DNA of 64,000 nucleotides from an uncultured Verrucomicrobiae bacterium (GCA_963758735.1 CAVWWT010000004.1:166579-230578), one strand, 5' to 3'. Positions 52,680 through 56,677 are shown, counted from the stretch's first letter. Translations and numbers: made by a program. Notes: generated by a model from the letters alone, not told the origin.

Positions 52680-52844
52680 GGAGTGTACTCAAAAGCTTTC
52701 ACTGTTTGGGCTAGCGTGAAAGCTTCCGCGGTAGAGTCCCCGCAAGTGGGTCCTATGTTTCAAAATATGGACCCACTTGCGGGGATCTCAACCCCGGAAC
52801 TTTGACGCAGTCCAAATAGCGAAATCTTTTGAGTACGCTCCCTA
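52677..52844. mobile_element. Modular palindromic MITE-like element, copy 3 (arm type C)
   Basis: 36-nt arms 52677-52712 and 52809-52844 around a 96-nt core. Confidence 0.88.
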
Positions 52845-53645
52845 GTTCTCAAGTTTTAAGAGGTGGAGCGCTTGCTCATCGCTTAATATTTTATGGAAAT
52901 GATCGAGCTGAAGTTGTGCAATTTTCGGATTAAAGGATTTTACCTTTTCGTCGGCTCCACCATAACGAATCCCCACAAAGTCAATTCCGAGCTTCTCTAC
53001 TGCTGCTTCGATATTTTCAATATGGCTTAATTTGTCGTCGATGACGACGATACGGTTCGGCAGTTTTTTCAATTTTTTCAAATAAGCATTGAGGGCCGGG
53101 CCTTTATCAATTCCGTTGCCTGTGAAAATGATCCCATTTTTGAACAATGTCCCTTTCAGCTCTTTAAAGACCAAATCCCCTTCCACAAGGGATGTCTTGC
53201 TAAAATCGATATGCAAAGGAGCTATCTGCTCGAGAGTTCGCTCAGATAGGGCCGGCGAGCGTTTAGTAAGCCCAATCATGGGAACATTTTGCTTCTGCAT
53301 TTTTGCAAGTAGATCGGCAATAATAGGTTCGACAAGTTGCATTTCTGTTCGGTCTAAAATTTGGCTGTAAACGGGCACAAGCTTTGCGATTGCCTCGTCG
53401 ACACTCAAACCTTCCGTTTTTAAGCAGTGATCTAAATGGTGGGAAAACCATTGGTCTGATCCAAGATGTTGCGCAGTTTCAATAAGTGTATTATCAAGAT
53501 CGAAGACATAGAGAGTGTCTTTTTCGAGATAGGTAAATGCATGTGCAAAATCGTTAGTTTCTGTGATGAGCGCTTCGCCTTTTGAAAAGGGGCAAAGAGC
53601 GACAGTGCACAGAGTTAATAAATAAAATAGGGACTTTCCTTTCAT
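52842..53645 (-). CDS. DUF2608 (HAD-like) protein with signal peptide
   Basis: VFDLDNTL..LGSDQWF, GLTKR, VVIDDKLSHI. Start set at ATG 53645. Confidence 0.85.
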   Translation of the reverse strand: MKGKSLFYLLTLCTVALCPFSKGEALITETNDFAHAFTYLEKDTLYVFDLDNTLIETAQHLGSDQWFSHHLDHCLKTEGLSVDEAIAKLVPVYSQILDRTEMQLVEPIIADLLAKMQKQNVPMIGLTKRSPALSERTLEQIAPLHIDFSKTSLVEGDLVFKELKGTLFKNGIIFTGNGIDKGPALNAYLKKLKKLPNRIVVIDDKLSHIENIEAAVEKLGIDFVGIRYGGADEKVKSFNPKIAQLQLDHFHKILSDEQALHLLKLEN

Positions 53646-53680
53646 TAGATTCCTTAGGTGAGGGAGCTTGTAACTTGTTC

Positions 53681-53847
53681 TAGGGAGCGTACTCAAAAGA
53701 TTTCATTGTTTGGGGTGCGTCAAAGCCCCGGGGTTGAGATCCCCGCAAGTGGGTCCTATGTCTCAAAATATGGACCCACTTGCGGGAACCGGGCCGCGGG
53801 AGCTTTCACGCAGCCCAAACTGCGAAATCTTTTGAGTACGCTCCCAA
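53681..53847. mobile_element. Modular palindromic MITE-like element, copy 4 (arm type C, core reversed)
   Basis: 36-nt arms 53681-53716 and 53812-53847 around a 95-nt core; overlaps the 3' end of aroDE. Confidence 0.88.
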
Positions 53848-55291
53848 GTATAATTTCAAAGACTTTATCTGCATTAATTGTTTCAGGAAACCAAATGCGC
53901 TGCTGCTCTAAAGCCTGGTAGACGAACATTTCGTATCCGTAAACAATCTGGCAATTTTTTTTCAAAGCTTTTACCAAAAAAGGGGTATTTTTAGGAATGT
54001 AAACGATATCCATGACTATCTTGCCAGGAAGGATCCACTGTTCTTCAATGAGGTCGCTCTCGGGTGTGCAATTAACAAGGATATCGTACCCTTTTTCAGA
54101 AACCTCTTTAATCAGTTCGAGACCTCCGCCCTGACAATCTAGGGTATCTGCAATCTCAAGCGCTTTTTCGGGAGTGCGATTGATAAGGGTCACAAATGCT
54201 CCCCTCTGAGTCGCTTCAAAAGCAATCGATTTGGCAGATCCGCCAGCGCCGATGATCACAACATGTCTTCCAAAAACGAGGGCTTTCTTTTCGATCGCAT
54301 CCAGCGCCCCAGTGCCATCGGTGTTATATCCGGTCATTTGATGATTGCTCACTCGAATCGTGTTACATGCCCCGATGACTTTAGTTTGTATCGAAGTTTG
54401 GGAGAGCATGGGAAGAACGCTCTCTTTTAGCGGCATGGTGACGCTGAATCCTTTAAAGGGAAGTTCTACAACTTTTGTGATGAAAGTCTGGAGTTCTTCT
54501 TTTGTAACGCGCACCTTGACATAGACGGCATTGATGTCGGCATCTGTAAAAACAGCGTTGTGAATCACGGCTCCTAGGCTTTTAGTGACGGGATCACCAA
54601 TCAAGGCGTAAATTTCTGTTTCTCGGTTCAATTTGCCAAATCGGTAAAGCTCTTGCATTTCACGCGCTGTGATTTGCCCCGGAGCTGTAGAGTCCTCTGC
54701 AAATAGTGGTGCATAAGTCAAATAGGAACCTACAACGGGGGCTAAGATCCGCGTGATCTGTCCTTCTTCCCCCATGGCGATACCGATAAAATTCTTCTCT
54801 TGCGAGTGGTTCTTCATGAATGAGAGAACTTTAAGCGCGTCAATGCAAGAATTTGCAGTCACTGCAATTTTATAGAAATGAGCGTTGGGAGTTTTGACTT
54901 TTCTAAAAACCTCTTCCAAATCGTCCGGCGTGTTCGAGAAATCGTGATAAGAGCTTATAAAAGAAATGTTCGGATAGGTTTCAAAAAGCCTTTTTCTGTA
55001 CTCCACTGGGACGTCATATTCTAGATCTACATAGGCAGGCCCTAGCTTGCAAAGAGCTTCCAGGCGATCTAAGCGCTCCATTTCTGTCCCGGAAAAGCGC
55101 CCCCCCTGATCATTTCTCCTAACGGTGAGCATGACAGGTTTTTCATACCCTTTGATAAAGGATTTGAGAGCTTCTTCATCGATATGCTCAAAATAATCAA
55201 GGCGGACCTCGACCCCATCGATATAGGGCTTTTGCGATGTGATCGTTTCGGAATTAGGGCTTGTAATCACCCCGAAAAGAAGTGTACTCAT
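53756..55291 (-). CDS. aroDE: Bifunctional type I 3-dehydroquinate dehydratase/shikimate dehydrogenase
   Basis: DGVEVRLD, SSYHDF, APGQ; then SLGAVIHN, FSVTMPLKE, ACNT, NTDG, IGAGGSA, GYEMFVYQA. Confidence 0.93.
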   Translation of the reverse strand: MSTLLFGVITSPNSETITSQKPYIDGVEVRLDYFEHIDEEALKSFIKGYEKPVMLTVRRNDQGGRFSGTEMERLDRLEALCKLGPAYVDLEYDVPVEYRKRLFETYPNISFISSYHDFSNTPDDLEEVFRKVKTPNAHFYKIAVTANSCIDALKVLSFMKNHSQEKNFIGIAMGEEGQITRILAPVVGSYLTYAPLFAEDSTAPGQITAREMQELYRFGKLNRETEIYALIGDPVTKSLGAVIHNAVFTDADINAVYVKVRVTKEELQTFITKVVELPFKGFSVTMPLKESVLPMLSQTSIQTKVIGACNTIRVSNHQMTGYNTDGTGALDAIEKKALVFGRHVVIIGAGGSAKSIAFEATQRGAFVTLINRTPEKALEIADTLDCQGGGLELIKEVSEKGYDILVNCTPESDLIEEQWILPGKIVMDIVYIPKNTPFLVKALKKNCQIVYGYEMFVYQALEQQRIWFPETINADKVFEIILGSVLKRFRSLGCVKAPAARFPQVGPYFET

Positions 55292-55330
55292 AGATTTAAC
55301 CCACAAAGAATCAATATTTTAAGTTAATAT

Positions 55331-55359
55331 TTGACATGATGTTTTCATTATGATACAAT
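55331..55359 (+). promoter_or_regulatory. Sigma70/sigma66-type promoter of the aromatic operon
   Basis: TTGACA-17 nt-TACAAT with an extended TGn element. Confidence 0.85.
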
Positions 55360-55391
55360 AAGTCTATAAAACAAAGGCAAATGAAGTTTTT

Positions 55392-55523
55392 ATGAAAACT
55401 ACAGTCAGTACCACATCCGGTCTTGACGCGATAAACGGAGTAAAACACTCCGCTATATCTTGCTGCGCCTTTTTTTATTCTTATTCTTTCTATTTTGGCG
55501 CTAAAACGCCAATATTTATTTAA
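55392..55523 (+). CDS. Phe/Tyr-rich leader peptide (putative attenuator)
   Basis: MKTTVSTTSGLDAINGVKHSAISCCAFFYSYSFYFGAKTPIFI*; 7 of 9 consecutive codons are Phe or Tyr. Confidence 0.65.
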   Translation: MKTTVSTTSGLDAINGVKHSAISCCAFFYSYSFYFGAKTPIFI

Positions 55524-55663
55524 CACCACTTACATCTATTTAGTTTCCCTTCAGACTGCAAAAGAGCGGTGAAAGCCCCTCTTAGAAACTGGAATTCGAG
55601 AATATTATTTCTTGTATCCAGATTTTATGAAGAACGTTAAATATATATTATAGAAAGGTGATT

Positions 55664-56677
55664 ATGTTAATTAAGTTACAGCAAAATTTAACCGAAGAAC
55701 TTTTAGGCCAGCTAATTGGCAAACTGAACTCTCATGGAGTCCATCATTGCATCTCTCGGAGTGAATCAGAGCTTGTCTTAGGCCTGGAAAAAGCGCCTTC
55801 AACAGAGGTTCTGAGTGATTTGAACTCTCTTGGCTGCATTTCAGAACTTATTCCGGTGAGCACACCCTGGAAGCTCGCGTCCAAGACATTCAAGAAAGAA
55901 AAAACGGAAATTACCGTAAAAGGGGTCACAATCGGCGGCAATTCTGTCATTATGATGGCAGGTCCGTGCGCTATCGAGAGCGAAGAGCAGCTTCGCGAGA
56001 TTGCGAAGCAACTAATAATTGCCAAAGTGAAGGTGTTTAGAGCATCCGCATTCAAACCGCGCACCTCGCCCTACAGTTTTCAAGGAATGGGTGTAGAAGG
56101 TTTGAAGCTCCATAAAAAATTACAAGAAGAGCATGGGATGCTGATCGAATCCGAGGTGATGGACGTGCGCGATGTTAAGATTGCTGCCGAATACGTCGAT
56201 ATCCTGAGAATTGGCGCCCGAAATATGCAGAACTTCGACTTGCTTAAAGAAGTGGGCAAATGCGGCAAACCCGTCATTCTCAAAAGAGGAATTTCTGCAA
56301 CGGTAGAAGAATGGCTAATGAGCGCCGAATACATCATGGCGCATGGCAATCATGAGGTGATCTTATGCGAACGGGGTATCCGCACGTTCGAAAATTCGAC
56401 GCGGAGCACGCTGGATTTAAGCAGTGTTGCTGTCGCAAAGCTTCTCACGCATCTGCCGATCATTGTCGATCCCAGCCATGCTGCCGGGCGCAAAGACATC
56501 ATTCCTGCTCTTTGCAAGGCATCTGTCGCAATTGGCGCAGATGGACTTCTCGTCGAAGTGCATCATAGCCCTAAAGATGCTAAGTGCGACGGAAAGCAGG
56601 CATTGCTTCCCTCCGAAATAGGAACGCTCTCTCACGAGCTTGATAACATCGCAAAAGCGATGGGAAGGTCTTTATGA
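55664..56677 (+). CDS. aroF: DAHP synthase type I-beta with N-terminal regulatory domain
   Basis: AGPCAIES, KPRTSPYSFQG, IGARNMQNF, CERG, DPSH. RBS AGAAAGGTG. Confidence 0.95.
   Translation: MLIKLQQNLTEELLGQLIGKLNSHGVHHCISRSESELVLGLEKAPSTEVLSDLNSLGCISELIPVSTPWKLASKTFKKEKTEITVKGVTIGGNSVIMMAGPCAIESEEQLREIAKQLIIAKVKVFRASAFKPRTSPYSFQGMGVEGLKLHKKLQEEHGMLIESEVMDVRDVKIAAEYVDILRIGARNMQNFDLLKEVGKCGKPVILKRGISATVEEWLMSAEYIMAHGNHEVILCERGIRTFENSTRSTLDLSSVAVAKLLTHLPIIVDPSHAAGRKDIIPALCKASVAIGADGLLVEVHHSPKDAKCDGKQALLPSEIGTLSHELDNIAKAMGRSL

Follow-up and report, generated by a model that had tools for sequence, protein, structure and literature searches.

Introduction

The leaders of the Escherichia coli pheL-pheA and pheM-pheST systems (Rfam RF01859) are small open reading frames (ORFs) that sense charged tRNA through ribosome stalling on successive cognate codons, and in ermC a Shine-Dalgarno (SD) sequence is freed by the same mechanism as is considered here, with antibiotics as the signal. 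The present study concerns an element of this kind in a 64,000-nucleotide stretch of DNA assigned to an uncultured Verrucomicrobiae bacterium (GCA_963758735.1 CAVWWT010000004.1:166579-230578), hereafter the window, where a 372-nt intergenic leader region (55292-55663) between two divergent genes precedes an operon for Phe and Tyr biosynthesis. On comparative grounds the element is very probably a real, conserved Phe/Tyr leader-peptide regulator in which ribosome-based sensing is predicted, and sensing of both amino acids is plausible. Judged by the 5' end of the 16S rRNA and the Chlamydiales signature primer sites, the genome (2.23 Mb, 4 contigs, 45% GC) fits Chlamydiota with 1-2 differences. 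To our knowledge few regulatory devices are known in Chlamydiota, and those that concern the supply of amino acids amount essentially to the Trp circuitry of Chlamydia.

The functional class of the element is that of leader-peptide attenuators, and it is not a member of the Rfam Phe_leader family. The E. coli pheL and pheM leaders sense Phe only and work by a terminator/antiterminator switch, whereas the chlamydial element is without an Rfam match: cmscan of 54800-56200 on both strands, with E-values up to 10, returned only four chance-level matches to unrelated families and no Phe_leader (RF01859), T-box or other leader family. A closer mechanistic likeness is found in the polycysteine leader ORFs of mycobacteria (Ms5788A type), for which cysteine-responsive translational attenuation has been shown experimentally (bioRxiv 10.1101/834739). 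As in those leaders, a ribosome stalled in the codon tract is here predicted to free the SD, with the downstream genes following by polarity and a terminator being unnecessary. Unlike them, the chlamydial element is predicted to sense Phe and Tyr, lies mostly on mRNAs that are not leaderless, has no sequence relationship to them, and possesses an invariant GC hairpin immediately behind the tract, a pair of hairpins within the ORF and a conserved C-rich motif.

With respect to the pathway concerned, the aroR leader of Corynebacterium glutamicum contains Phe-Tyr-Phe and lies before aroF, whose expression rises on ribosome stalling (Neshat et al. 2014, via PMC11802643); aroR is described there as a transcription attenuator that responds to limitation for Phe and not for Tyr. 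The chlamydial leaders also precede a DAHP synthase operon and end in an invariant Phe-Tyr-Phe, but their run is longer (5-9 Phe or Tyr (F/Y) codons) and is not accompanied by a conserved terminator. Upstream of aroF in Acholeplasma, the uORFC-13-1 motif has been reported as an uncharacterised upstream ORF (Brewer et al. 2021, PMC8632094). It resembles the present element in being an aromatic-codon ORF before the same class of DAHP synthase, the Acholeplasmataceae enzymes being 47-53% identical to that of the window; the Acholeplasma leaders (L066, L078) differ in being shorter (MFQTFAYYYYYQM, MLTYQTVSYTYYYFR), in encoding a different peptide and in having a clear intrinsic terminator, and, on inspection by eye, no similarity of sequence or structure is apparent. 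The TrpL leaders predicted for the trpRBA operon of Chlamydia (PMC3937554; PMC7755916) contain Trp codons, belong to another operon and to the family Chlamydiaceae, and are unrelated in sequence. These predicted Trp leaders were the only leader-peptide control that turned up in the Chlamydiota literature. In agreement with the preliminary description of this DNA, which had been made from the sequence alone and which knew of no Phe/Tyr leader in Chlamydiota, no published description of one was found in the searchable literature.

Results

The leader peptide ORF (55392-55523, plus strand), whose frame is conserved, comprises 43 codons and a stop, encodes the peptide MKTTVSTTSGLDAINGVKHSAISCCAFFYSYSFYFGAKTPIFI and ends in FFYSYSFYF-GA. 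Its sensing tract (55470-55496, plus strand) reads TTT TTT TAT TCT TAT TCT TTC TAT TTT, that is, 4 Phe, 3 Tyr and 2 Ser codons. Behind it, Pfam assignments identify an aroG-type DAHP synthase gene (DAHP_synth_1 with an N-terminal extension; 55664-56677, plus strand) as the first gene of the operon, followed by CM_2 chorismate mutase, PDT+ACT (pheA), PDH (tyrA), a class I/II aminotransferase and DHQ synthase (aroB). Both the 43-residue ORF and its position ahead of an aromatic operon thus stand as they had been proposed in the preliminary description, and so does the caution given there that T-rich DNA yields Phe and Tyr codons by chance, at least for the run alone. Since a six-frame count over the whole 2.2-Mb genome found 20 clusters without a stop in which 7 or more of 9 codons are F/Y, the run by itself is no proof and comparison is decisive; the probability that one such cluster falls on the correct strand of the 372-nt leader is ~0.002. 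The 19 other clusters are not leaders, and those inspected were out-of-frame parts of genes or T runs.

Relatives were gathered by a DNA search of 40 relatives and by protein and pattern searches of 100 family and 400 order genomes, giving a comparison set of 28 loci, or 25 once redundant ones are set aside. They represent at least six families (f1, f5, f10, f24, f33 and f43, with one metagenome-assembled genome of unassigned family besides). Every locus carries an ATG-started ORF of ~25-50 codons that ends in (F/Y)n-F-Y-F-Gly-(Ala/Val/Ser/Cys), while its N-terminal part diverges freely (for example MKTQVTTTSGLDAIHGANSVGLCRSYFSSFYFYFGA, MTKQHSNQILAGAKPATVAAVYFYFYFGA and MSKNARITSSISAQLAPAYSFYFFYFGA). 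In the leader frame of all 25 non-redundant loci, the open frame reaches back 15 or more codons to an ATG, as against 1/25 in each of the other sense frames. Antisense coding was considered and rejected as not conserved, the three antisense frames across the tract having an ATG-started ORF in 9/25, 8/25 and 1/25 (7 codons). In the codon table of the 25 loci, TAT/TAC and TTT/TTC interchange at run positions -4 to -9, the Ser codons of the run are both TCN and AGC, and alignment gaps within the run measure 3, 6, 9, 12 and 21 nt, all multiples of three. Both Phe and Tyr codons are retained in every locus, and the run closes everywhere with the same nine nucleotides, TTC-TAT-TTT. The downstream gene is usually aroG; it is a chorismate mutase gene in L162 and, in L163 and L164, a gene for an IlvE-like aminotransferase that is itself followed by aroG. 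The conserved frame, the synonymous changes and the gaps in threes together argue for a translated regulatory leader tied to Phe/Tyr synthesis. Conservation of in-frame Phe/Tyr codons in orthologous leaders, which had been put forward as one way to check the proposal, accordingly holds in 25 of 25 non-redundant loci.

The tract is immediately followed by a structure that all loci share. Hairpin e (UUGGCG-CUAAAA-CGCCAA; 55495-55512, plus strand, TTGGCG 55495-55500 with CGCCAA 55507-55512) begins within the last Phe codon, is kept in 25/25 loci at -6.7 to -12.1 kcal/mol, shows the double change GGCU/AGCC in L010 and L034, and has the leader stop within the loop in 17 of the 28 loci. Here another reading has to be weighed, in which no amino acid is sensed: the conserved region would act as a structured RNA or as an operator in the DNA for some regulator (the palindrome TTGGCGCC-N4-GGCGCCAA), or would encode a small hydrophobic protein that has a function of its own, and a U-rich anti-SD tract would give rise to the F/Y codons incidentally. 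Such tracts do read Phe/Tyr/Ser in one frame, nucleotide conservation in the final 14 nt of the tract and in hairpin e exceeds what coding would need, and the double change in L010 and L034 preserves RNA hairpin and DNA palindrome alike. This reading is nevertheless very improbable in our judgement, given that the ATG-started frame persists in all loci over a freely diverging N-terminal sequence, with synonymous changes at Phe, Tyr and Ser codons and with run gaps in multiples of three. Moreover, the association with Phe/Tyr biosynthesis genes holds regardless of which gene comes first, and F/Y leaders recur independently before the same enzyme in other phyla.

With regard to how such a sensor might act, folding of the leader brought out a long-range helix at the start of aroG. 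The 3' strand of this helix (55636-55648 and 55650-55657) lies within 55636-55661 (plus strand), a segment that includes the aroG SD AAAGGUGA (55654-55661). The tract segment CUUUCUAU (55486-55493) pairs with the SD region AUAGAAAG (55650-55657) with probability 0.97, and the second and third helix segments (AUAU and UAUUUAAC; 55512-55524, plus strand, including the leader stop at 55521-55523) pair with 55636-55648 with probabilities 0.82 and 0.99, hairpin e branching off between the helix segments. The mean unpaired probability of the SD is 0.15 in the native window against 0.33 in dinucleotide-shuffled leaders, and 0.18 against 0.35 over the 25 loci; in 19 of these, at most 1 of 12 shuffles gave an SD accessibility as low as the native one. 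Duplexes between the F/Y tract and the ribosome-binding site (RBS) were found in 12 other loci, with 13-22 bp and -11 to -20.5 kcal/mol; partners are UUCUAUUUCUAUUUU with AAAAUAGGAAUAGAA in L161 and AGCUAUUCUUUUUAU with AUAAAGGAAUAGCU in L167, and L029 has 20 consecutive pairs. A tract and the RBS of its own locus pair at -10.96 kcal/mol, compared with -8.89 kcal/mol for cross-locus combinations (0/5000 permutations; the loci are related, so that permutation and shuffle counts overstate independence). L161, L162 and L167, which belong to one genus, have three different, mutually fitting tract-RBS pairs. The recurrent sequestration of the SD, by the F/Y tract itself in the window and 12 loci, points to translational attenuation.

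A stalled ribosome was modelled as a constraint on the fold with a 28-nt footprint. Placed on the tract, the footprint raised the accessibility of the window SD from 0.15 to 0.40-0.59; placed at the stop codon, it gave 0.18. Masking of the tract opened the SD in silico in the window and 9 other loci. In these models the SD would open only with a ribosome on the tract, which is the polarity expected for a biosynthetic operon. From the conservation and these fold models together, we regard as moderately probable that the element is a ribosome-read Phe/Tyr sensor acting mainly on the initiation of aroG translation. Transcription would begin near 55366, and ribosomes would translate the 43-codon leader. 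In RNA free of ribosomes, the F/Y tract and the stretch behind hairpin e would pair with the purine-rich region in and upstream of the aroG SD, and aroG initiation would be poor. When charged tRNA-Phe or tRNA-Tyr is scarce, we infer, a ribosome would stall in 55470-55496, hold that strand single-stranded and thereby free the SD.

Besides the relatedness of the loci, several observations weigh against this account. Tract masking opens the SD in only 10 of the 25 loci and fails to do so in 15, and in most long leaders of the window's own genus (L002, L004, L006, L007, L009, L011, L012 and L018) the SD is held by the tract behind hairpin e or by the C-rich motif f described below; a relay of stalling in those leaders was looked for in the folds and not found. 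The tract-RBS duplex of the window is not locus-specific, ranking 12 of 28, and composition alone accounts in part for the pairing of U-rich codons with purine-rich RBSs. The folding is thermodynamic and not co-transcriptional, and SD sequestration does not explain why hairpin e and motif f are so strongly conserved.

The preliminary description had instead inferred control by an intrinsic or Rho-dependent terminator, switched through two sets of alternative pairings. In classical attenuation of this type, the leader would sense Phe/Tyr and the output would be either hairpin e with its U-rich tail or a terminator-like hairpin (CTGGA..CGAGAA / TTCTTG..TCCAG; 55589-55621, -10.8 kcal/mol) followed by ATTTTAT (55622-55628), together occupying 55589-55628 on the plus strand, with an antiterminator dependent on stalling. 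The sequence is suggestive, for the hairpin and its AUUUUAU are located 42 nt before the aroG ATG, and hairpins stand at the same place in L002, L004, L006 and L007 with differing sequence and a preserved fold. In the window, L004 and L007 the hairpin with its U tract ends 42-45 nt before the start codon, and in L002 a weak one ends 36 nt before it. Furthermore, homologous DAHP synthase leaders in Acholeplasmataceae, Clostridium and Synergistaceae have clear terminators (PMC8632094), hairpin e is flagged as terminator-like by a terminator scan, and hairpin P2 within the ORF, with the U-rich tract behind it, looks like the pause hairpin that synchronised attenuators need. However, hairpin and U tract are convincing in only 3-4 of 25 loci and altogether missing in 16. 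Neither arm of the 55589-55621 hairpin is complementary to any segment freed by the stalled ribosome, the hairpin folds alike in the free and the stalled models, and no antiterminator for it was found in the window by folding or by complementarity.

Hairpin e was rejected as a regulated terminator, its tail being not U-rich in many loci and the hairpin being unable to tell the states apart, because a ribosome at the last F/Y codons and one at the stop in the loop both cover it. As for the pairings that had been listed, GCGCC 55465-55469 with GGCGC 55497-55501 and AGTTTC 55542-55547 with GAAACT 55585-55590 are both present in the window, but the former is conserved in no relative and is thus probably not functional. 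Folding, then, points to an RNA switch of another form: it predicts sequestration of the SD by the tract and lends no support to an intrinsic or Rho terminator switched by these pairings. Transcription attenuation as the output of the leader is therefore unlikely, and under the preferred reading, control of aroG initiation, the hairpin with its U tract (55589-55628) may contribute a further step at the level of transcription, constitutive or auxiliary, in the sub-lineage of the window.

Beyond the leader stop, the next 33 nt of the window (55524-55556) include 11 C and 2 G, in agreement with the C-rich, G-poor tract reported earlier. This stretch opens with the conserved C-rich motif f (CACCACUUACAUCU; 55524-55537, plus strand), defined by alignment, which reads CUUACAUCC or AUCAGAUCC after the leader stop across the loci and is a second copy of a motif in the loop of hairpin P1. 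A ~10-nt pyrimidine-rich motif, AUCA[C/G]AUC[C/U]G or CUUACAUCC, is in fact present twice in most leaders, in the P1 loop (55411-55420 in the window) and past the stop (55524-55537), and L002-L051 have it at the same places. No consistent pairing partner for either copy was found in the leaders compared. Between motif f and the RBS lies a variable spacer of 80-206 nt.

A stretch of this composition could be a loading site for Rho, access to which would be gated by ribosome position or fold, as in tnaC or mgtL. Rho is encoded in the genome, in six loci including the window 2-10 nt separate the leader stop from motif f, and motif f, being conserved without a pairing partner, is probably single-stranded. 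Yet motif f is situated 28-40 nt beyond the tract, where a ribosome stalled at 55470-55496 would not reach it, the fold models of the window contain no fold that hides it upon stalling, and the polarity would be reversed if only terminating ribosomes masked the site. Rho attenuation at this site is accordingly rather unlikely, and Rho acting merely downstream of an untranslated aroG already belongs to the control of translation initiation preferred here, in which untranslated aroG mRNA may also be shortened by Rho; such polarity is likely a secondary effect.

Two other roles for motif f were examined and rejected. The rrn leader of the same genome (UCUCUUAACAUC) resembles motif f, and lambda nutR resembles L018, but families with the rrn boxA UAUUUUGACAGUAG carry the motif f CUAUCAGAUCC, which speaks against a boxA/Nus site. 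An anti-SD function was dismissed as well, pairing with the RBS occurring in only some genus-level relatives. The genome's own rrn leaders (G000:C2 ~270160, C4 ~572310) carry UUUCUCUUAACAUCAGAAGUG where other chlamydial families have UAUUUUGACAGUAG, and the aro leader of L018 (CCUCUUACAUUC ... ACCCUGAAAAAGGGU) closely resembles the boxA-boxB of lambda nutR.

The leader as a whole folds better than shuffled versions (z = -5.2), and two hairpins lie inside the ORF. P1 (GUCAG.ACC / GGU.UUGAC; 55404-55427, plus strand; fold probability 0.94-0.99) has the motif ACAUCC in its loop. P2 (CGGAGU / ACUCCG; 55436-55452, plus strand; fold probability 0.99) stands 17 nt upstream of the F/Y run, where most loci have a hairpin of different sequence, and together with the U-rich tract that follows may be a candidate RNA polymerase pause or synchronising hairpin. 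Pair changes on both sides occur in 5/8 pairs of P1, in 5/6 of P2 and in 10/20 overall. The covariation score of P1/P2 is 0.209, as against 0.121 in shuffles (0/500 as high) and 0.06-0.11 in controls with slid partners. The pairs were counted on a defined structure that had been taken from the first sequence and is somewhat favoured by that choice. RNAalifold on the MAFFT alignment did not recover the hairpins, owing to misalignment.

Upstream of the ORF, a sigma-70-type promoter (55331-55359, plus strand) consists of TTGACA (55331-55336), a 17-nt spacer and TACAAT (55354-55359), with TG preceding the -10 hexamer and a transcript start predicted near 55366. With 11 of 12 consensus matches it is as near to consensus as had been noted before, and TTGACA / TATAAT-like hexamers occur at the same relative place in related loci. 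The purine tract AAAGG (55373-55377, plus strand) resembles an SD for the leader itself. When the RNA is folded without a ribosome, its region (55366-55378) pairs with the 5' part of the F/Y tract (55467-55478), the predicted helices 55366-71:55473-78 and 55373-78:55467-72 having probabilities of 0.69-0.87, and relatives show the same AAGAAGGCA / UGCCGUUCUU complementarity between the leader's SD-like tract and the F/Y tract. The mini-ORF MKFL* (ATG AAG TTT TTA TGA; 55381-55395, plus strand) overlaps the main ATG as ATGA and may hand ribosomes over to it. Its presence agrees with the preliminary description, but its conservation is only partial, an overlapping or in-frame upstream start being found in L003, L006, L010, L026, L027 and L028. 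An ATG, TTG or GTG 3-5 nt past the AAGG tract is common in relatives, in a frame that varies relative to the main ORF.

Several observations concern single loci. An alternative LFLFW frame from the tract to the RBS, which had suggested a hungry-codon frameshift, is open to the end in only 4 loci and is for that reason treated as chance. In L011, L012, L029 and L034 it runs on from the F/Y tract until 3-16 nt remain before the downstream start codon; this may reflect chance in RNA poor in G and A, or may let frameshifted ribosomes reach the RBS. In L131:1596-2759 (G283, family f33) the leader MNTVCKQQLLSAKAYSFCFFFYFGV stands before a 387-aa ORF without a Pfam match, which may have an unrecognised aromatic-pathway or transport function. 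In L008 (G001:C1:626640-629849) and L155 (G002:C3), of the same genus, leader, hairpin e and motif f are kept while aroG is lost; G001 is also without pheA, tyrA and the aminotransferase, and the leader now borders on what is left of the aroG 3' end and on a chorismate mutase gene.

Discussion

Taken further, the comparison allows a broader proposal, which we put forward tentatively as a possibility. The element may be an ancient and modular regulator of chlamydiae whose sensing codons double as the anti-SD, a purely translational Phe/Tyr attenuator that has been moved between first genes and whose codon choice has been re-tuned to each RBS. The invariant hairpin e and the repeated AUCA(C/G)AUCC would then belong to a second layer, a relay or a trans-acting factor, that would explain the long leaders in which masking of the tract does not suffice.

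If Phe/Tyr sensing is borne out, environmental chlamydiae would possess a conserved sensor with which they adjust their own aromatic synthesis to the supply inside the host, and the leader would be a compact reporter of the Phe/Tyr available to the symbiont. With the element, a well-supported comparative case would also join the few amino-acid leaders whose action seems to be on the initiation of translation and not on termination.

Phe/Tyr leaders before this class of DAHP synthase recur in very distant lineages. Homologous DAHP synthase genes (45-57% identity) outside the comparison set are also preceded by small ORFs rich in Phe, Tyr or Trp (L052, L053, L066, L078, L083, L100, L106, L113, L125 and L129), in Woesearchaeota and Nanoarchaeota (DPANN archaea), Acholeplasmataceae, Clostridium, Synergistaceae and Oscillospiraceae. 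The small ORF of Woesearchaeota ends in FAYFFYYFG, much like the chlamydial FYFYFGA, and among the bacterial aromatic-rich leaders inspected, those of Acholeplasmataceae, Clostridium and Synergistaceae have clear terminators.

The genome has a second DAHP synthase paralogue beyond the window (G000:C4:113068-114045; 44% identity), which lies directly 3' of trpB-trpA, 4 nt beyond the trpA stop, and is without an F/Y leader. The divergent neighbour of the leader region is aroDE, a dehydroquinase / shikimate dehydrogenase fusion (53756-55291, minus strand). Near it, a repeated element is present in two copies (52760-52852, minus strand, and 53658-53921, plus strand) that flank a gene at 52842-53696 and read as the peptide ...RERTQKISLFG.RQS.GVEIPASGS..., and the last residues of AroDE come from one copy of this RERTQKISLFG-type repeat.

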